Positions 4,508 through 30,538 are shown, counted from the first letter of the stretch. The stretch: 52,045 nt of DNA from Alphaproteobacteria bacterium (GCA_017457005.1 JAFTII010000004.1:1-52045), one strand, 5' to 3'. The notes: a model not told the origin generated them from the sequence alone. Numbers and translations are program-made.

Positions 4508-6763
4508 ATGCTCAAAAAGCTAAATATATTAGGGATTATAATGCTGACTGCAACATTTTTATGTATGGCGGCACCGTCAGTATATGCCGCTTATGATCCG
4601 TCTAATATTGAAGAAATGTCTGTTGCTAAGTTTTGGAGAGCGGTAAACGGGTATGATGCAGAAGTAGATGAAGAAAAAGAATACCTTATTTGTGGCGGAA
4701 ACGTCTGTGATACTGAAACTCAAGAATGTCTGGTGTTAGTATCAGAAAGAGAAGAAGTTGCTACTAAAATAGCCAAAATATTAGATAAAATAGGATCTTT
4801 CGGTATAGAATTTTTACCGACTATAGGAGATGTCATCATTTGGGTAAGAGGAGAAGGCAAAGTATATTCCTATGAATATAAATGTGTTATGTCTTCAGGA
4901 AATGAAATCAGCCAATTAACGTCTCAAGGTTGGAAGGTTGCTACGGAAGGAGGTTTTGTTCAAAAACAAAAAATCAGAACCGAAGGCGCAGTCTTTAAAG
5001 GTACCCAAAAAGAAGAAACCTGCTATAGTGACAGTACCGGAAAAACATATTGTTTGCTGACAAAAGAAAAAGGTGGTGAACTGAAGAAAGCAACCGTCGG
5101 ATACGGCAAAGATAATACCGCTTTTCAGACCTGTGAAGTCATTCCGGTAAAACTTTATCAAAATCGCAAATGCTTTTTCTGTCCGCTATTTACGATTCCA
5201 TACGCTATTGCAAATCATATAACATCAATTTCTTTCGGAGCATTTGCTAAAGCATTTGCTCAATTAATCGCCTTAGGCTTGGCTATTTGGGTTTCTTATC
5301 AGACCTTGAATCACGTATCTTCAATTACCAAACAAGATGCCGGAAAGTTTTTGTATGGTTTACTCAAGCAAAGCTATAAATTTTTAATTGCATTTTTTTT
5401 ACTGATATATTCCGTAGAAATATACAATTACGCCATAATTCCTATCATGAAAAGCGGTATAAAATTTGGCTCTTTAATGCTAAGCGAAAAATATGCTGTT
5501 GTTAAAACAAATAGTGAGCAAAAAATTACTAATTGGGAGAAAATGGAAGAAATTAATCCCGGTATCACTAAGCGTAGCAAAAAAATTACTCTGAGAGACG
5601 GAGATACCAGATATTATAGTAGTGAGTTGTACGTTGAATTAGATAATTTTATTGCTCAATTACAACGGACAATATCTTTTATGCAGGTTACGGGTTCTTC
5701 AATGATTTGTGTCGGAGGAAACGCCATTAAATTTAAGGGCAACGTACTAGGATTTGGTGATGGAATCCAGTTAATAATAGAAGGGATAGTTCTTGCCGGA
5801 TTCGCTTTTTTAATTTCTATCAGTGTCGCTTTTTATATACTTGATGCAATTGTTCAATTAGGTTTGGTAGGGGCGCTAATGCCATTTCTGATTGCCTGCT
5901 GGCCTTTTAAGATTACTTCAAAATATACCAACATCGGTTGGAATATGTTTTTGAACGCTGTCTTTTTATTGATGTTTACCGGTGTAGTAATCACAGTAAG
6001 CATTAGTTTGATTGAAGCTGCTTTGAGCTATACGGCTATTAGTGATGAATGTACGAATGGGCAATGTTCTATAGATAGTGTCAAAATGGGTGCTTTATAC
6101 AAAATTGCTCAAGCAATTAATAGTCAGGATGAAGAAAAGCTTGAAAACTTAACCGATATATCATCTATAGGGTTCTTAATACTGATATTTGCATGTATTT
6201 ATGGTTTTATGTTTGTGAAGAAGAACTCCGAGCTTGCCGGCAAATTCGCCTCGGGTGCATTGTCGCCGATTGCGCCTGAAGTTGCAACTATAGGCGGATC
6301 AGCCATTAAGAGTATGGCTCTTAAGTCAACTCAAAGTACAAGAGAGGGAATAGATAGAGTTGCCAAACGTACTGCAAGTTCGGTATGGAATGTTGCTACT
6401 CATCCTGTCAGAACCGCCAAAAATGTAATGAACTTCTTCAGCTCATCTTCCAACAATGATGATAATAATGAAGATAGTAATGATACTTCATCTGCCAATT
6501 CTTCAGCGGGTAAGGGGGTAAGACCTAAAATAGGACAAAGCAATACTCAAGATACTAAAAAACAAACAAAGAAACCAACTGTAGGAGAAAAAGCAACGCC
6601 TGCAAACGGTAATGAAGATAATGATGAAGATACAGACACAACGGAAGCCAAGGTAAAACGAGCCCAGTATTCCGGAAAACGTAAGCAAAATGCGAAGGCT
6701 AAAAACAGTAGCCACAAACAAAGACAAAGAAGTCAAAATAGTTCAAGAGCAAAAAATATATAA
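4508..6763 (+). CDS. TrbL/VirB6-like polytopic membrane protein
   Basis: Signal peptide, soluble N-domain, TM cluster with GALMPFLIACWPFKITSKYTNIGWNMFLN (VirB6-like core), long hydrophilic C-tail. Confidence 0.6.
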   Translation: MLKKLNILGIIMLTATFLCMAAPSVYAAYDPSNIEEMSVAKFWRAVNGYDAEVDEEKEYLICGGNVCDTETQECLVLVSEREEVATKIAKILDKIGSFGIEFLPTIGDVIIWVRGEGKVYSYEYKCVMSSGNEISQLTSQGWKVATEGGFVQKQKIRTEGAVFKGTQKEETCYSDSTGKTYCLLTKEKGGELKKATVGYGKDNTAFQTCEVIPVKLYQNRKCFFCPLFTIPYAIANHITSISFGAFAKAFAQLIALGLAIWVSYQTLNHVSSITKQDAGKFLYGLLKQSYKFLIAFFLLIYSVEIYNYAIIPIMKSGIKFGSLMLSEKYAVVKTNSEQKITNWEKMEEINPGITKRSKKITLRDGDTRYYSSELYVELDNFIAQLQRTISFMQVTGSSMICVGGNAIKFKGNVLGFGDGIQLIIEGIVLAGFAFLISISVAFYILDAIVQLGLVGALMPFLIACWPFKITSKYTNIGWNMFLNAVFLLMFTGVVITVSISLIEAALSYTAISDECTNGQCSIDSVKMGALYKIAQAINSQDEEKLENLTDISSIGFLILIFACIYGFMFVKKNSELAGKFASGALSPIAPEVATIGGSAIKSMALKSTQSTREGIDRVAKRTASSVWNVATHPVRTAKNVMNFFSSSSNNDDNNEDSNDTSSANSSAGKGVRPKIGQSNTQDTKKQTKKPTVGEKATPANGNEDNDEDTDTTEAKVKRAQYSGKRKQNAKAKNSSHKQRQRSQNSSRAKNI

Positions 6764-23612: not shown

Positions 23613-24659
23613 GTGATTAGTTTAAAAGATATCAATATTACTACTGAAATGCTTGGTATTATTTCCCAAATTGATGAGTTTAAAGGAAGTTGGAATGCTA
23701 TTAGCAGAACCCCAGAAAAACTACAATCATTAAAAAAAGTAGCAACTATTGAAAGCATAGGTTCTTCAAATAGAATTGAGGGTAATATTTTAACTGACAG
23801 ACAAGTTGAAACCATCTTATCAAATATAAAAAAACAATCTTTTTCCACCAGAGATGAGCAAGAGGTAATAGGATATGCTGACCTGATGGAAAATATATTT
23901 GATAATTATGAGGTAATTCCCTTTACTGAAAACTATATAAAGCAACTTCATAAGATACTTTTATCATATTCAAGCAAAGATGAAGCACATAGAGGCAATT
24001 ATAAAACTTTATCTAATAGTGTAGCAGCATTTGATACTGATGGTAAGCAAATTGGTATAGTATTTGAGACAGCCACTCCATTTGCAACCCCAGAGTTGAT
24101 GAGAAAACTAATATCACAGACAAGGGAATTATTAGAAGACAATGCTTTACACCCATTGATATTGATTGCCTTATTTGTTGTTCATTTTTTAGCAATTCAT
24201 CCCTTCCAAGATGGTAATGGCAGATTATCCAGAGCATTAACCACATTACTATTGCTAAAAAGTGGGTATTCTTATGTTCCATATAGTTCTATGGAAACAA
24301 TAATAGAAGAGAATAAAAATACCTATTACAAGGCATTAAGAAATTGTCAGCAGACATTTAAAACTGACAATATTGATTACAATGTGTGGTTGATGTTTTT
24401 TTTACAGACAGTCTTGAAACAAAAAATAAGATTAGAAAATAAAATCGGATTAGAAAAACAACAAGGATTAACTTTAAATCAAACAAGGATTCTTGAATTA
24501 TTTAATGAATCTAACCAGTGGACAAGTTCAGAAATTGCCAAAACAACTAATATCAATATAGCAACAGTGAAAAAAGCATTAGCAGAATTAGTTGATGGTG
24601 GATTCTTGATTAAAAATGGTTCTACCAAGGGTGCTTGGTATGAGAAAAATAAATGGTAA
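23613..24659 (+). CDS. Fic-domain protein with C-terminal winged HTH
   Basis: HPFQDGNGRLSR catalytic motif; SNRIEGN inhibitory-helix motif; C-terminal TSSEIAK...GSTKGAWY. Confidence 0.92.
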   Translation: MISLKDINITTEMLGIISQIDEFKGSWNAISRTPEKLQSLKKVATIESIGSSNRIEGNILTDRQVETILSNIKKQSFSTRDEQEVIGYADLMENIFDNYEVIPFTENYIKQLHKILLSYSSKDEAHRGNYKTLSNSVAAFDTDGKQIGIVFETATPFATPELMRKLISQTRELLEDNALHPLILIALFVVHFLAIHPFQDGNGRLSRALTTLLLLKSGYSYVPYSSMETIIEENKNTYYKALRNCQQTFKTDNIDYNVWLMFFLQTVLKQKIRLENKIGLEKQQGLTLNQTRILELFNESNQWTSSEIAKTTNINIATVKKALAELVDGGFLIKNGSTKGAWYEKNKW

Positions 24660-24835: not shown

Positions 24836-26110
24836 ATGTTAGATATTAAATTTATTATAGAAAACCCACAGTTCGTTAAAGAAAGTCTTGCAAAGAAAGG
24901 TTTTGCCTCTGAGAATGTGGATAATTTAATATCAACTTATTTGGAGATGAATAAGCTCAAAACTTCATCACAAGCTTTAGCTGAAGAAAAAAATAAACTT
25001 AGCAATTCCATCAAAACGGCAACTGCGGACGAACGTCCGGCAATCATTGCCAAAAGTAAAGAAATCGGAGAAGAGTTTAAGAAACAACAAGAACAACTTA
25101 GTAAAATTGAGGCAGATTTTGAGCTTCAAATGCTTAAAATGCCTAATTATCCGAGTTCCGATTGTCCTGTAGGTGAAGATGAAAGCGGAAATGTGATTAT
25201 TCGCAAAGTCGGCACACCTCGTACTTTTGACTTCACTCCCCGTGACCATGTTGAACTTATGGAATTAAATGATTGGGCAGAAATGGAACGTATTGCCAAA
25301 GTATCCGGATCCAGAACTTATGCAATTAAAAATGATTTAGCTAAGTTGGAATTAGCCATACACATGATGGTTCTTGATAAATTGCGTGAACACGGATTTA
25401 CGGTCATTACGGTTCCTTCTTTATCTAAAGAAAAACCTTTATATGGGCAAGGTTATCTGCCGTTTTCACGAGATGAAATTTATTATATGCCTGCTGATGA
25501 TATTTATTTATCCGGTACTGCAGAACTTATTTTAAATTCATTACATGCAGATGAATTGTTGCAAGAAAATCAATTGCCGATTCTTTATGCCGGATTTTCT
25601 CCGTGCTTTCGCCGTGAAGCCGGAGCAGCCGGTAAAGATACACGCGGCTTAGTACGTGTGCACCAATTTATGAAAACAGAGCAATTTGTTATCTGTAAAA
25701 ATGATATTGCAGAGAGTGAAAAATGGCACCAAAAGCTATTGGCAATTTCAGAAGAAGTTTTGCAAGATTTAGAATTGCCGTATCAGGTATTGGACATTTG
25801 TACGGGTGATATGGGCGCTCCTAAATATCGCCAATATGACTTGGAAGCATGGGTTCCCAGTCAAAACTGCTATCGTGAAACCCATTCTTGCTCCAATATA
25901 ACAGATTGGCAAGCTCGCAGAACAAATTTACGTTATCGTGACAATGCAGAAGGTAAGGTCAGATACGCTCATACCCTTAATAATACCGGAATTGCCACAC
26001 CACGTGCATTAGTTCCGTTTATTGAGAATCATCAAAATGCAGATGGTACAGTAAATATTCCGACAAAATTGCAGCCTTATTTAGGTGGAAAAACAAAAAT
26101 CGGAAAATAG
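24836..26110 (+). CDS. serS: Serine--tRNA ligase
   Basis: N-terminal coiled coil; GTAE, FRREAG...RGLVRVHQF, HTLNNT. Confidence 0.97.
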   Translation: MLDIKFIIENPQFVKESLAKKGFASENVDNLISTYLEMNKLKTSSQALAEEKNKLSNSIKTATADERPAIIAKSKEIGEEFKKQQEQLSKIEADFELQMLKMPNYPSSDCPVGEDESGNVIIRKVGTPRTFDFTPRDHVELMELNDWAEMERIAKVSGSRTYAIKNDLAKLELAIHMMVLDKLREHGFTVITVPSLSKEKPLYGQGYLPFSRDEIYYMPADDIYLSGTAELILNSLHADELLQENQLPILYAGFSPCFRREAGAAGKDTRGLVRVHQFMKTEQFVICKNDIAESEKWHQKLLAISEEVLQDLELPYQVLDICTGDMGAPKYRQYDLEAWVPSQNCYRETHSCSNITDWQARRTNLRYRDNAEGKVRYAHTLNNTGIATPRALVPFIENHQNADGTVNIPTKLQPYLGGKTKIGK

Positions 26111-26129
26111 CTGATAAGTAAATTTCCCG

Positions 26130-26169
26130 ATACACCCTAAAGTTGTTGCAACTTTAGGGTGTATTTTTT
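26130..26169 (+). terminator. Rho-independent terminator
   Basis: 16-bp stem ATACACCCTAAAGTTG/CAACTTTAGGGTGTAT plus T-run. Confidence 0.88.
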
Positions 26170-26188
26170 ATATACATCAACAAAAAGA

Positions 26189-26217
26189 TTGAAACAAATA
26201 TTAAAAAGTGCTAATAT
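26189..26217 (+). promoter_or_regulatory. Putative sigma70 promoter facing the structured locus
   Basis: TTGAAA-N17-TAATAT. Confidence 0.45.
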
Positions 26218-26223
26218 ATAAAA

Positions 26224-26450
26224 TGAAAAAAGAGGTGATGGCCGGGCTTCGTGAAGGAAGTTATTACCAGCAATAACCGCCCGTTTAGTAGTTATCAACG
26301 GACTTGCTCCGGCCACCATTAATTTTATGACCATTCCGCTCCGCTATTAAATTATATGGGAGCGGTGTTGATAAGCATAAGGCGGTATCAACACCGCCGC
26401 TGATAAATACTGGGAACCTTCACATTCCCGAGCCAATTTATGACTCGCTG
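26224..26450. ncRNA. Candidate structured non-coding RNA locus, family unknown
   Basis: GC-rich patch with several hairpins, two inverted homologous modules and flanking convergent promoter-like sequences. Confidence 0.5.
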
Positions 26451-26452
26451 AT

Positions 26453-26481
26453 ATGCTATATCAACATTATTCAAATTTCAA
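26453..26481 (-). promoter_or_regulatory. Putative sigma70 promoter facing the structured locus
   Basis: Minus strand TTGAAA-N17-TAGCAT. Confidence 0.45.
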
Positions 26482-26580
26482 GCTTTAATTAATTTGATTA
26501 TCGGCAAATCATTCTTGCTTGTAACATTCAATATTACTATAATATTGTCATAAATATAATCTATCTGAACGGATATAATA

Positions 26581-27246
26581 ATGTTATTGGATAAATCTAA
26601 ACTTTTGTATGCCCTTTTTGATTGGGACGGAACATTAGCAGATAATAGGGCCGTTGTGATAAAATCAATAGAGCAAGTTTTGGCAGAATACGGACTTGGC
26701 AATTGGGATGACGTTAAAAAACTTCGTAATCCTAAGTTGTCATTAAGAGATAATTTTGTTAATTTTTTTAAAGATAATGCGTTTGCAGCTTATGAACGTT
26801 ATCTTCAAATTTATAAGCTAAATTCGCCTCAAATGCTAAAAAGTTTTCCGTTTGCTGCTGAGGTTATACATTATCTTAAAAATCAGGGTGTGGAAGTCAT
26901 AATAATGACTAATAAAGACAGAAGACTATTAGATATTGAGTTACCGCTATTATATAATCCGGATTTATTTTTCAGAATTATATGCGGACACGAAGCACCC
27001 AAAGATAAACCGTATCCGGAACATATATATTATTCATTAAGAGGTCTGTTGTCGCCTTCAGAAATAAATCAGCAAAATGTTTGGATGGTTGGGGATAGCA
27101 GCCAAGATAGTGATTGTGCAATTTCTGCCGGAGCAACTCCGATTAGGGTGCATGAAGATTTATTTAAAGAACAACGGAATTCTTCTCAGATGATACAATA
27201 TTTTAAAAGTTTTGCGGAATTTTATGATTTTTTAGCAAAATATTAA
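26581..27246 (+). CDS. HAD-family hydrolase (phosphoglycolate phosphatase-like)
   Basis: FDWDGTLAD, TNK, KPYP, VGDSSQD. Confidence 0.9.
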   Translation: MLLDKSKLLYALFDWDGTLADNRAVVIKSIEQVLAEYGLGNWDDVKKLRNPKLSLRDNFVNFFKDNAFAAYERYLQIYKLNSPQMLKSFPFAAEVIHYLKNQGVEVIIMTNKDRRLLDIELPLLYNPDLFFRIICGHEAPKDKPYPEHIYYSLRGLLSPSEINQQNVWMVGDSSQDSDCAISAGATPIRVHEDLFKEQRNSSQMIQYFKSFAEFYDFLAKY

Positions 27247-27282: not shown

Positions 27283-28845
27283 ATGTTTGAAAATTTAGAT
27301 ATCAGTAGGCAAACTCTGTTTAAATATATATTATGGGCAATATTTATTATCGGTATATTATTGCTGAATTTCTTTTTTGTGAAAGATTATATATCATCTA
27401 ATTCTTCTCAAATAAAAGATTATATTTTACGTGATGAAGATATAAATCCTACACGCGAAGCTGCTGTAGCCGGATTATTTTATCCGGCAGATGCCTATCA
27501 ATTAGAACGTGCGATTGATGGCTACTTAAGCCTAAATCCATCAACTTTTAGCCGTCGCCCACATATTATGGTTGTTCCGCATGCCGGATACCTTTATTCG
27601 GCAGAAGTTGCAGCAAAAGCCTATCAACAATTGCTTCCTTATAGTACTGCTATCAAAAAGGTAATAATTTTAGGCCCTTCTCATAAAGTTAATATTAAAG
27701 GTGCTGCTCTTTCTCGTGCTACAGGATTCCGCACTCCGTTAGGTCGCATTAAAACCGATAAAAATACAACAGATTATTTTTCTGCCCTTAAAGGATTCTC
27801 TTTCAATGACTATGCTCATAAAGATGAACATGCTTTAGAAGTACAACTTCCGTTTTTGCAAAAAACACTCAAAAATTTTTCCATCATTCCTATAATATAC
27901 GGTCAATCATCTCCTGAAATGCTGGCTGATGCAATAAGTCCGATATTGGAACAAGATGATGCTTTATTGATTGTTTCTGCAGATTTATCGCATTACCTTA
28001 ATGTTGAAGAAGCCAAGCTTCAAGATTCTCAAACAAGAGATATGGTTTCTGCCGGAGAAAAACTAAAAGCACATCAGTCTTGCGGAGCAACCGGAATTAA
28101 TACAGCTATGATTTTAGCTAAAAAATTCGGCTTGAAACCAAGTTTACTTGATTTTGCCAATTCCGGAGACGTATCCGGAATTACAGATAGTGTTGTCGGA
28201 TACGCTTCTTGGGTATTTGCCGGCGAACCTGATTTAGATAAAAATTTAACTCCCTTAGAGCAAGAAGTTGAAAATTTAACATTTTTTGCTAAGCATAATC
28301 GGCAAGATATTATAAAAATTGTCAAACAGTCTTTAGTATTAGCAACTAAGGATAAAAATTACACTCCTACCCGAGAAGAATATCCTGATGTCATGTTTGA
28401 TAAAGGCGCCGCATTTGTAACTCTTGAAATTGATAATAAATTGCGTGGTTGTATAGGATCTCTGCTTCCCACTCAAGCCATCAGTTTGGATATTGCTCAA
28501 AATGTATATGCCGCAGCCAATAAAGATAAGCGTTTTACACCATTAAAAGACGATGAATTGCCGAATATAGATTTTACGGTATCATTGCTTAGCAGTTATG
28601 AACGTATTAACTTTAAAAGTGAAGAGGATTTATTAAATAAGATAAAGCCCTATGAAGACGGTTTGGTAATTAGAGACGGAGACCGACAGGGGCTTCTTTT
28701 GCCATCTGTATGGAAAGATTTTTCTACCCCTAAAGAGTTCTTAAATGCACTTAAAATAAAAGCAGGTTTAAGCCCTTTATATTGGTCAGATAAAGTAAAA
28801 ATATATAAATTTAGAACTGTGGAGATAAAAGATAATGAAGCATAA
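27283..28845 (+). CDS. AmmeMemoRadiSam protein B/A fusion (MEMO1 + AMMECR1) with N-terminal TM helix
   Basis: AVAGLFYP, PHAGYLYS, EHALEVQLPFL, SADLSHY, VVGYAS; then GAAFVTL, LRGCIGS, LLPSVW, LKIKAG. Confidence 0.9.
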   Translation: MFENLDISRQTLFKYILWAIFIIGILLLNFFFVKDYISSNSSQIKDYILRDEDINPTREAAVAGLFYPADAYQLERAIDGYLSLNPSTFSRRPHIMVVPHAGYLYSAEVAAKAYQQLLPYSTAIKKVIILGPSHKVNIKGAALSRATGFRTPLGRIKTDKNTTDYFSALKGFSFNDYAHKDEHALEVQLPFLQKTLKNFSIIPIIYGQSSPEMLADAISPILEQDDALLIVSADLSHYLNVEEAKLQDSQTRDMVSAGEKLKAHQSCGATGINTAMILAKKFGLKPSLLDFANSGDVSGITDSVVGYASWVFAGEPDLDKNLTPLEQEVENLTFFAKHNRQDIIKIVKQSLVLATKDKNYTPTREEYPDVMFDKGAAFVTLEIDNKLRGCIGSLLPTQAISLDIAQNVYAAANKDKRFTPLKDDELPNIDFTVSLLSSYERINFKSEEDLLNKIKPYEDGLVIRDGDRQGLLLPSVWKDFSTPKEFLNALKIKAGLSPLYWSDKVKIYKFRTVEIKDNEA

Positions 28846-30538
28846 AATAGCTATTTCTGAAGAAAAATTAGATGAAATTTTTGCAGAACATGTGCGAGAT
28901 GTTGTTTTAATAGATGATAAATTTTCAGGATACCGGAATCTTAGTGAAGGAAATAAAAAAGCTTTACAATATTTGGTTAGAGCCGCCAAGGTTATGAATA
29001 TCGTTGCTATGGAACAAGATCATCCGCAAAACTTGGCATTAAAAAAAGAATTGGAAGAAGCCGCAAAAACCAGCTCTCATGCAGCAAAAGCATTACGTTT
29101 GTTCAATTCTTTAGGCGGTGCAAGCGGACATAATGGTATAGATTTTGAGCCTATAGAAATATTTGAAGGTATTAATTTGCTTAAAGGCAAAAATTTCTAC
29201 CCTCAAGATTTGAGTGTAGAAAAATTTCATCAGATACTGAAAGATATGCTCAAATCTGGTCAACAAGATAATGTAAAAAAGATTTTGTCAGCTCGCAGTA
29301 TGGTAAGATATTCTGATGACGGTACACTTAAAGCTATAGACTATACCGAATATTTTGCAGCGCAATTTTCCGCAATTGCAAATGACTTGGAGCTTGCAGC
29401 TTATTATTCAGATAATCATGAATTTAATGAATTTTTGAATTGGCAAGCTCAGGCACTATTGCAAAACAATGAAGACATGGACATGTTGGCAGATAAACAT
29501 TGGGCAGTTATGCAAGATACCCCTTTAGAATTTACCATCAGTCGTGAAAATTATGAAGATGAAATGACCGGAACGGTTTTAGAAGACGAAGAATTAAAAA
29601 AATTATTAACAGAAGCCGGAATAGAACCGATTGCAAAAGATACTTTAGGGGCAAGAGTTGGTATCATAAATCAAGAAGGTACAAAACTTTTACTGACCTT
29701 TAAAGAGCAAATGAAGAAATTAGCAAATCTTATGCCGTTATCTGACAAATACCAACAGACCATAGCATCCGGAGAGACTATTAAGCAGACAATGGTAGAT
29801 GTAGATTTGGCTGCTTTATGCGGAGACTTTGCTCAATGCCGAGGAGGCATCACGACGGCGGAAAATTTACCTAATGATGATAAGCTTGCCATCAAAACAG
29901 GTGGTGGCAGACGTAATGTTTATCATCGTCAAGTCAGAATGAGTTATGATGAACAACGCGATAAAAGATTGTTGAATGCCTTAGTAGTTCCGGAATTACA
30001 CCAATATTACAGTCATGAAGCTGATCATATTTTTGTTATCGGACATGAGAATGGTCACTCTTTAGGCCCTAATAGCTCATACAAAGATGCACTTGGAAAT
30101 TATCGCCATATTATTGAAGAAAATAAAGCAGATGTTGTTTCTATAGCCATGATGCCTGAATATGTAAAAAGTGGCGTTATAGATGAACTAATGCTCAAAA
30201 AAATCTATACGACTTGGATTGTTATGCGTTCTTTATGCAAAGCTAAACCTATAGAATCACATAGAGTTGGCGATCTAATACATTTCAACTATTTATTGCA
30301 ACGAGAAGTAATAACTTTTAATGCAGATAAAAAGCTTAATATTGATTTTGCCAAATTACCTATAGCCATCAACAGTTTGCTGGCAGAAACAATTGAAATT
30401 CAGCTTTCTCGCTCTCCGCAAAAAGCAAAGGCTTGGATTGAAAAATATACCAAGTGGGAGGACATTCATATATATATTGCCAATACTTTACAAAGTTTGG
30501 GTGTTAAAAATTATATAGAAATTAGGACACATTTTTAA
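28835..30538 (+). CDS. Zn peptidase, M49 (dipeptidyl peptidase III)-like
   Basis: NFYP, NLPNDD, GHENGHSLGP (HExxH), EENKADV. Confidence 0.75.
   Translation: MKHKIAISEEKLDEIFAEHVRDVVLIDDKFSGYRNLSEGNKKALQYLVRAAKVMNIVAMEQDHPQNLALKKELEEAAKTSSHAAKALRLFNSLGGASGHNGIDFEPIEIFEGINLLKGKNFYPQDLSVEKFHQILKDMLKSGQQDNVKKILSARSMVRYSDDGTLKAIDYTEYFAAQFSAIANDLELAAYYSDNHEFNEFLNWQAQALLQNNEDMDMLADKHWAVMQDTPLEFTISRENYEDEMTGTVLEDEELKKLLTEAGIEPIAKDTLGARVGIINQEGTKLLLTFKEQMKKLANLMPLSDKYQQTIASGETIKQTMVDVDLAALCGDFAQCRGGITTAENLPNDDKLAIKTGGGRRNVYHRQVRMSYDEQRDKRLLNALVVPELHQYYSHEADHIFVIGHENGHSLGPNSSYKDALGNYRHIIEENKADVVSIAMMPEYVKSGVIDELMLKKIYTTWIVMRSLCKAKPIESHRVGDLIHFNYLLQREVITFNADKKLNIDFAKLPIAINSLLAETIEIQLSRSPQKAKAWIEKYTKWEDIHIYIANTLQSLGVKNYIEIRTHF

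Follow-up and report, generated by a model that had tools for sequence, protein, structure and literature searches.

What is encoded at positions 26,189-26,481 of a 52,045-nt stretch of DNA from an alphaproteobacterium (GCA_017457005.1, JAFTII010000004.1:1-52045; the whole stretch is referred to as the window), a locus that carries no annotated gene? In the initial annotation, two promoters facing each other across two inverted, homologous structured RNA modules with identical GUGAAG loops were described, and the locus was interpreted as a tail-to-tail pair of paralogous small RNAs (sRNAs) or, as a fallback, as one irregular 6S-like hairpin of about 200 nt. Judged by the covariation of its helices in related genomes, the locus is one folded RNA of about 220 nt on the minus strand (about 26447-26226) and not two sRNAs. 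Its two domains are joined by two long-range pseudoknots, and in related genera the RNA directly precedes genes for XRE-type regulators. The claim of an unannotated, selected structured RNA of a family outside Rfam was borne out both by this covariation and by the absence of an Rfam match.

Results

One RNA on the minus strand

A covariance-model search of related metagenome-assembled genomes, as had been proposed with the initial annotation, detected conserved homologues, and 21 sequences from 21 distinct loci were fitted to the model in an alignment designated A4. The relatives compared are uncultured gut Alphaproteobacteria (deer, human and chicken gut). When both pseudoknots were included in the pair counts, 96.8% of 1109 cells in A4 were paired, compared with 86.9% in shuffles and 33-52% with slid partners, and 36 of 55 pairs changed on both sides, as is expected of the conserved structured domain of a riboswitch or cis-regulatory leader; none of the 500 shuffles reached any of these measures.

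The strand was read from the wobble pairs. Over the 45 nested pairs of the 21 sequences, the minus strand gives 163 G.U cells against 8 A.C cells, and this holds in both halves of the locus. The G.U pairs are located in the closing stem P5, in P6, in P7 and at the base of P3, where they are compatible with the minus strand only; on the plus strand all of these would be A.C mismatches, including those in the closing stem and P6 of the supposed plus-strand module. Since the G.U pairs in both halves fit the minus strand, both modules belong to one minus-strand RNA, and the apparent homology between them is, on the evidence of the aligned sequences, inverted complementarity within that RNA. The minus-strand half folds much better than shuffles (z -4.54), whereas the fold of the isolated plus-strand module does not surpass that of shuffles (z -1.54; equalled by 13 of 200).

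GTGAAG does occur twice, at 26251-26256 on the plus strand and at 26423-26418 on the minus strand, the latter inside GGGAAT-GTGAAG-GTTCCC (26429-26412), but only one of the two proposed hairpins covaries. All six pairs of the minus-strand hairpin, P2, change on both sides. The plus-strand stem GCTTC-GTGAAG-GAAGT shows zero compensatory changes in the 21 sequences, although 63 of 65 cells of the genus, and 27 of 37 in the other genera, allow the stem GCTTY-GTGAAG-GAAGT to pair; on the minus strand its nucleotides are already engaged in the base of P7, the strand of pseudoknot 1 (PK1) and P5a. Words shared in the same order by the two modules (TATT..CAGC and others) are present as described, but most of them are complementary strands of the helix of pseudoknot 2 (PK2) and not products of homology; TTATCAAC is located in the variable P6 and is found in this genome only.

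Two open reading frames (ORFs) overlapping the locus were rejected: a 65-aa minus-strand ORF at 26137-26334, whose frame is broken in relatives by indels in P6, and a 12-codon plus-strand ORF starting from the conserved ATGG of P5, which by eye is not kept in one relative (L157).

Two long-range pseudoknots

The identical GUGAAG loops are, by their covariation, the two strands of one long-range helix, PK1, which joins the P2 loop UGUGAAGG to CCUUCAC, the segment immediately 3' of P7. In PK2, which covaries too, the strand just 3' of P2, UUAUCAGC, pairs with the P7 loop GCUGGUAA. Contiguous PK1 and PK2 helices of at least 7 bp can be formed in 21/21 sequences, with at least six sequence variants of each. 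Five of the six PK1 pairs change on both sides, and pairing is 100% in the 19 sequences with letters in those columns. The PK1 variants are GUGAAGG:CCUUCAC (this genus), CCCAAGA(A):(U)UCUUGGG, GUGAGAG:CUCUCAC, GUAAAGA:UCUUUAC, GUGAAGAA:UUCUUCAC, GUAAAGAG:UUCUUUAC, UGUAAGGAG:UUCCUUACA and, in L180, GUUGAAGA:UCUUCAAC; those of PK2 are UUAUCAGC:GCUGGUAA, AUCAGC:GCUGGU, CCAAAGC:GCUUUGG, UAACAGC:GCUGUUA, UCUAAAGC:GCUUUAGA, ACUCGCAAU:AUUGCGAGU, UACACAACG:CGUUGUGUA and AGUAGAACG:CGUUCUACU.

In a cross-test of nine sequence classes, cognate partners formed 7-10 bp in PK1 and 6-8 bp in PK2 (mean, 8.0 and 6.8 bp, respectively), compared with means of 5.2 and 4.1 bp for non-cognate partners. The lowest cognate value was reached by 14 of 72 non-cognate combinations for PK1 and by 9 of 72 for PK2, mostly between closely related variants. 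A third long-range pairing, between ACCGCC in the P3 loop and GGCGGU at the P6/P7 junction, was considered and rejected: ACCGCC is missing from L160 and L163, and GGCGGU from L158.

Secondary structure

The RNA folds as a 5' domain of P1, P2, P3 and a variable P4 and a 3' three-way junction of P5/P5a, P6 and P7, which are clamped together by the two reciprocal helices PK1 and PK2. From this reciprocal topology two coaxial stacks are predicted, P2 on PK2 and P7 on PK1. RNAalifold on 11 sequences predicted P1, P2, P3, P5/P5a, P6 and P7 with 50 pairs, 15 of them with compensatory changes. The whole structured RNA was placed at 26226-26447 (about 220 nt; minus strand, as are all elements below), the start from the position of the -10 element and the end from the P5 stem and U tract; R1, a covariance model of the whole RNA, matches 26226-26452 with 227.6 bits.

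In the 5' domain, P1 is a variable 5' hairpin (GAGUCA...UGGCUC, 26430-26446) in which pairs 8-13 with 19-24 covary according to RNAalifold. It is followed by P2 (GGGAAU-GUGAAG-GUUCCC, 26412-26429), whose loop with flanking nucleotides, UGUGAAGG (26424-26417), is the 5' strand of PK1, and by the joining segment J2/3, UUAUCAGC (26399-26406), the 5' strand of PK2; both strands were located by helix alignment and pair counts. The long hairpin P3 (GGCGGUGUUGAU / AUCAACACCGCU, 26361-26398), predicted by RNAalifold and carrying ACCGCC in its loop, has 6 of 12 pairs that change on both sides. P4 (CCGCUCC...GGAGCGG, 26336-26365) is a variable spacer hairpin that differs in length and sequence in every relative.

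The 3' domain (26236-26318) is closed by P5 and P5a, in which 9 of 11 pairs change on both sides. Their 5' portion (26306-26318) consists of the P5 strand UGGUGGCCGG (26318-26309), a bulged A and the GC of P5a (26307-26306), and their 3' portion (26236-26247), supported by pair counts, of the GC of P5a (26247-26246) and the P5 strand CCGGCCAUCA (26245-26236). Within the junction, P6 (26279-26303) is a variable hairpin with 4 of 6 pairs changing on both sides, and P7 (GGUUAUUG-CUGG-UAAUAACU, 26259-26278; pair counts) contains the stretch GCUGGUAA (26271-26264), the 3' strand of PK2 by pair counts and helix alignment. The 3' strand of PK1 is J7/5, CCUUCAC(G) (26250-26257), the reverse complement of the plus-strand 'GTGAAG loop'. 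Directly after P5 there is a U-rich tract, UCUUUUUU (26226-26233), whose sequence makes it the likely 3' end and terminator tail here; by eye, about 7 of 12 genus-mates also show U-rich sequence after P5.

Known RNA families

The recommended Rfam check (6S RNA, signal recognition particle (SRP) RNA, transfer-messenger RNA (tmRNA) and riboswitches) gave no known-family match at the locus. At gathering thresholds only a tRNA was found in the window; at E <= 10 the locus itself had 18 weak matches, the best with 22.3 bits against a gathering score of 80, and none was 6S or a riboswitch. No match was obtained in the loci of 9 diverged relatives at E <= 0.1, nor at the locus with covariance models of SRP RNA, tmRNA and RNase P RNA or with ARAGORN.

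The host genome (G000; 38 contigs, 1.19 Mb, 88% complete) encodes RNase P RNA (contig C18, 14627-15014, 300.9 bits) and an alpha-type two-piece tmRNA (contig C17, 15679-16139, 196.2 bits) elsewhere, the latter confirming that the genome is alphaproteobacterial. The Rfam search of this 88%-complete assembly found no SRP RNA and no 6S RNA (the latter at E <= 10). Canonical SRP RNA is present elsewhere in 5/5 genus-mates searched, and canonical 6S RNA (58.7-63.4 bits) likewise in 5/5, four of which carry the RNA described here; the missing SRP and 6S genes of the host are probably best explained by the 12% of its genome that is not assembled. The fallback of the initial annotation was thus closer to the truth in proposing one RNA of about 200 nt, but its 6S-like hairpin was not sustained, the ends being unpaired with each other and 6S RNA being encoded elsewhere in genus-mates.

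For sRNA-Xcc1 (RF02221), no match was found at the locus, in the host genome or in G034. Sub-threshold matches (19-37 bits; L368-L371 and further loci) were obtained in G191 (14 matches), G142 (15) and G139 (1), so that they are multi-copy in two sister genera, all away from the loci of the present RNA. R2, a 92-position covariance model of the 3' domain, found nothing convincing at four RF02221 loci (best 17 bits, away from the match). By these searches, the RF02221-like RNAs are a second, separate leader-like family within the same bacterial family.

Distribution

By BLAST, the stretch was detected at 72-83% identity in 11 of 36 genus-mates drawn, with a conserved core at about 26233-26439 and unalignable flanks. 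Full-length R1 matches above 190 bits were found in 15 of 56 genomes of the genus, and R2 added a diverged copy in G061 (38.9 bits), by eye a complete RNA, giving 16/56 genomes in total. Among 151 genomes drawn from the family, R1 matched at full length in 7 genomes belonging to three other genera (57-94 bits; two copies in one genome). In addition, the 3' half only was matched in a fourth genus, and one weak match was obtained. With R2, the order's second family, represented by one genome, gave no match, and neither did 149 other alphaproteobacterial families sampled by a single genome each. Within the genomes searched, a single family of uncultured gut Alphaproteobacteria accounts for all occurrences of the RNA.

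At one locus (L161; G124, contig C7, about 5893-5982) a solitary 3' domain matched R2 with 68.5 bits; it is set between AT-rich DNA on one side and GC-rich DNA on the other, with no recognisable 5' domain within 400 nt upstream and no XRE gene downstream; this copy may be a remnant. Stretches picked out by a loose DNA pattern of the 3' domain were also searched with R2, and none of 66 from viral contigs and none of 80, out of at least 120, from metagenome contigs matched; these pattern matches were discarded as chance, the pattern being too loose, and they are uninformative on phage or environmental distribution. In the host genome the locus sequence is single-copy, and a repeat or mobile element was rejected on that ground.

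Linkage to XRE regulators and orphan copies

Outside the genus, all nine full-length loci (9/9) have a helix-turn-helix (HTH) ORF of 135-164 aa on the same strand, starting at most 40 nt from the end of the model, and L180 is likewise in the 5' leader position of a same-strand gene; this position is also held at 3 of 13 loci in the genus, but not in the window. Pfam HTH_3 was identified in 4/4 linked ORFs tested (E 1e-14 to 2e-7), and seven loci, namely six of the nine outside the genus and L180, matched the PraR-like XRE protein of the host genome by BLAST. The RNA-XRE pair occurs in three neighbourhoods: in the order serS-RNA-XRE-HAD on one strand, after a putative SecA-like ORF, and between putative lgt-like and putative ftsH-like ORFs. 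One genome carries two RNA-XRE cassettes with different pseudoknot sequences. A riboswitch-like leader role is suggested because the RNA directly precedes an XRE/HTH_3 gene, often with a terminator overlapping P5.

In the window, the locus is housed in a gap of 470 nt bounded by serS (24836-26110, +) and a gene for an HAD-family hydrolase (26581-27246, +; Pfam HAD_2, E 3e-28). In this genus the cassette lies between serS and HAD/Memo in inverted orientation. An XRE-like ORF of 123-125 aa is kept at 3 of 13 distinct loci and is absent from the other 10, this window included; there is no gene downstream on the RNA strand in the window, where the RNA runs toward the 3' end of the convergent serS. 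In relatives without the RNA, the distance from serS to the HAD gene is only 34-140 nt.

Among the 10 sequences of the XRE-less subset, compensatory changes were still counted in 10 of 45 pairs, and 105 of 208 columns do not vary. Such changes and invariant columns indicate that the orphan RNA is functional and under selection, and its retention under selection after the loss of XRE argues for a function of its own.

The PraR-like XRE gene of the host genome lies on contig C10 (20522-20995), about 120 nt after a putative apolipoprotein N-acyltransferase-like ORF, and its product is 52% identical to the RNA-linked XRE protein of G191; no such RNA leader was found upstream of it. By tblastn, relatives of this XRE type were found on 779 plasmid records, mostly of Rhizobium and Sinorhizobium. 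In G023 (L049/L140), serS points the other way relative to the RNA and Memo, so that it shares a strand with the RNA and follows it at a distance of 187 nt, with a facing promoter-like element in the interval.

Promoter-like sites and neighbouring genes

Both of the facing promoters of the initial annotation were located by a promoter scan and are conserved. On the minus strand, the -35 element TTGAAA (26481-26476) and the -10 element TAGCAT (26458-26453) are separated by a 17-nt spacer (26453-26481), forming the putative promoter of the RNA; on the plus strand, TTGAAA-N17-TAATAT with a TG extension is located at 26189-26217. Six promoter-like sites were found in 600 nt, compared with 2.9 +/- 1.6 in shuffles, the region being AT-rich. 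Such hexamers by themselves are weak evidence, and it is conservation that makes both sites credible candidates. The minus-strand hexamers are kept in 12/12 aligned genus-mates, in which the flanks are unalignable. The plus-strand site, as TTGNAA-N16/17-TG.TAATAT, is kept in 9/12, exactly those without the XRE gene, and the 3/12 that lack it retain the whole RNA. In both gene orders seen (G000 and G023), the plus-strand element is directed through the RNA gene toward HAD/Memo.

A second candidate site, TTGCTT-N17-TATAAT (26514-26542, +), was noticed by eye just upstream of the HAD gene and is likely its proximal promoter; it is absent from the promoter scan list (3 of 6 matches in the first hexamer) and is not conserved in the aligned relatives. 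An intrinsic terminator of serS, with a 17-bp stem and a T run, was found by the promoter/terminator scan at 26129-26165 (+), outside the RNA. Directly upstream of serS, a Fic/DOC-family protein of 348 aa is encoded (23613-24659, +; Pfam Fic, E 3.7e-17), the C-terminal region of which is winged-helix-like (weak MarR/IclR-type matches). A fused Memo-AMMECR1 protein of 520 aa is encoded at 27283-28845 (+; Pfam Memo, 4e-55; AMMECR1, 9e-40), and the stop codon of its gene overlaps the start of the following ORF (28835-30538).

Discussion

The interpretation that we favour, and consider somewhat probable, is that the locus carries one minus-strand double-pseudoknot RNA of an XRE-leader family, which acts as a riboswitch-like gate and which is orphaned here but still selected. 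The RNA would be transcribed from TTGAAA-N17-TAGCAT, roughly from 26447 to 26226. In its usual setting it would form the 5' leader of an XRE/HTH_3 regulator gene, and the 3' strand of P5 would pair alternatively with an arm of a downstream terminator or with the ribosome-binding region. Formation of P5 and the clamped fold would undercut the terminator or sequestering hairpin and leave XRE ON; failure of the fold would turn XRE OFF. A ligand or signal may stabilise the compact fold; the gene context, in which the target would be a regulator gene, points to no ligand candidate. In the clade of the host XRE has been deleted, and P5 leads directly into a U tract (UCUUUUUU in the window); here the fold itself would serve as the terminator, and the RNA would end near 26226. 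The orphan copy would then be a free RNA, or a sensor that decides between termination and read-through into the facing plus-strand promoter.

The expression platforms were compared as minimum free energy folds of fragments from 12 XRE-linked loci. A stem followed by a U7 run, the 5' arm of which overlaps the last 3-4 nt of the P5 3' strand, is present in 4/12, and in L180, L139, L137 and L160 a pairing with the ribosome-binding or start region is available to the P5 3' strand or to the nucleotides adjoining it downstream. Several points weigh against a riboswitch-like gate. No clear alternative structure was found in 4/12 of these platforms; P5, with 10-12 GC-rich bp, would be poorly challenged at equilibrium by terminator stems of 5-7 bp; and a separate XRE promoter may overlap the terminator. 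Across the family there are few conserved unpaired nucleotides, an unusual feature for a small-molecule pocket. As the window has no same-strand downstream gene, cis-regulation of an ORF cannot be the present role of this copy. The pair counts themselves lean toward the nested model structure to which A4 was fitted, the pseudoknot columns lying outside that model. A bolder extension, which we regard as doubtful, is that the RNA represents a new riboswitch class with a reciprocal double pseudoknot that senses a cellular signal and switches on a PraR-like XRE gene, and that it was rewired here to control, by transcriptional interference or antisense action, either the HAD-Memo operon or the 3' end of serS, with a ligand determining whether transcription terminates or reads through.

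Among the rival explanations, a stand-alone trans-acting RNA with its own terminator, either dual-function like Brt1 or merely neighbouring XRE, with XRE as a regulatory partner and no target of attenuation, is rather unlikely. It would account for the 10 of 13 genus loci at which RNA and promoter are kept without XRE and the structure is still selected, for the terminators directly after the RNA in 4 loci, and for the U tract that follows it here. A parallel is given by the Brt RNAs of Bartonella, which are 194-203 nt long and highly expressed and adjoin XRE-type trp genes that are barely transcribed; a terminator/riboswitch region and an additional trans role were proposed for them (Tu et al. 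2016, PMC5387305). Against this explanation, the XRE start lies about 30-40 nt after P5 or the terminator in 9/9 loci outside the genus, so that a separate promoter could hardly be accommodated, alternative partners for the P5 3' strand recur downstream, and the cassette duplicates as a unit; no target of a trans action was found, no search aimed at one having been made. That the RNA is a decaying leader relic without present function, as the loss of the downstream gene in this clade might imply, is very improbable in view of the compensatory changes in 10/45 pairs of the XRE-less copies, their 105/208 invariant columns next to flanks that cannot be aligned, and the promoter hexamers kept in 12/12 relatives.

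Two paralogous sRNAs transcribed tail-to-tail from both promoters, each with a GUGAAG-loop hairpin, are a still more remote prospect. The facing promoter-like sites do exist and are both conserved, and the plus-strand stem can be paired throughout most of the genus, but covariation already contradicts the two-sRNA model: GUGAAG covaries with its complement as a pairing partner, compensatory changes are absent from the plus-strand hairpin, the G.U to A.C ratio of 163 to 8 points to the minus strand for both halves, the plus module on its own folds like shuffles, and relatives without the plus promoter keep the whole RNA. A divergent housekeeping RNA (6S, SRP, tmRNA or RNase P) missed by the Rfam models would fit the failure to find SRP and 6S genes in the 88%-complete genome, and the whole region does fold as a long irregular hairpin on either strand; nevertheless, with RNase P RNA and tmRNA elsewhere in the host, SRP and 6S RNAs elsewhere in the genus-mates that carry this RNA, and the RNA itself in only 16/56 genomes of the genus, this explanation can be practically dismissed.

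The few large bacterial RNAs of unknown function are joined here by a well-supported family, about 220 nt long and with two covarying long-range pseudoknots, whose uncultured gut lineage has no genetics. Its usual target would be a transcription factor, in parallel with the poorly understood Brt/Trp circuit of Bartonella, which suggests that an RNA gate before an XRE regulator is a repeated alphaproteobacterial design. The selected orphan copies that face a conserved promoter would be a natural experiment in which a cis leader becomes a free-standing or antisense RNA. The fold is compact, and the natural variants dictate compensatory mutants that can be tested at the bench. A literature search of articles, supplements with their possible motif lists lying outside its scope, returned no paper describing this RNA or an XRE-linked riboswitch candidate; the main texts of PMC11109978 and PMC8632094 contain no mention of XRE, HTH, helix-turn-helix or Alphaproteobacteria, and that of PMC5737381 none of XRE, helix-turn-helix, 'transcription factor' or Alphaproteobacteria.

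Comparison with known systems

The RNA resembles 6S RNA (RF00013) in its length of about 200 nt, its own promoter and the extensive pairing between its halves. It differs from 6S RNA in that the model does not match here and in that the architecture lacks both a closing stem between the 5' and 3' ends (P1 and P5 being local helices) and a central bubble. Riboswitches and attenuator leaders such as ZTP/pfl consist of two subdomains with a variable linker and a pseudoknot clamp. Both they and the present RNA have subdomains that are connected by a linker of varying length and clamped by long-range pairing, and in the present RNA, as in those leaders, the 3' strand of the closing helix may compete with a terminator or ribosome-binding-site hairpin; the present RNA is much larger, uses two reciprocal loop-to-strand helices and has few conserved unpaired nucleotides. 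SreA and SreB of Listeria belong to a known class (SAM-I) and still lie before genes. They share with the orphan copy an aptamer-like fold that ends in a terminator and gives a free RNA; here, unlike there, the class is uncatalogued and the downstream gene is absent.

The Brt/Trp system is an alphaproteobacterial RNA-regulator pair of the same general layout. According to PMC5387305, Brt is a structured RNA, about 200 nt long, that is transcribed from a promoter of its own and directly adjoins a downstream XRE-type HTH gene, with a stem-loop/terminator at its 3' end and a proposed riboswitch-like read-through. A trans role is plausible for both RNAs, and copies with a broken downstream gene (the trp8 pseudogene) recall the loss of XRE here. 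In the same paper, Brt copies number 2-34 per genome in plastic regions, against 1-2 copies of the present RNA, and the word pseudoknot is absent, whereas the present RNA has two. Brt is described there as genus-specific by BLAST, with one copy on plasmid pBGR3 (Table 1). When R2 was run with filters off on pBGR3 (28,192 bp), the best match had 8.7 bits (E 3.2) and was not next to the HTH gene. By this comparison with one plasmid copy, homology to the Brt RNAs is not supported, and Brt/Trp is the closest functional parallel to the RNA of this locus.

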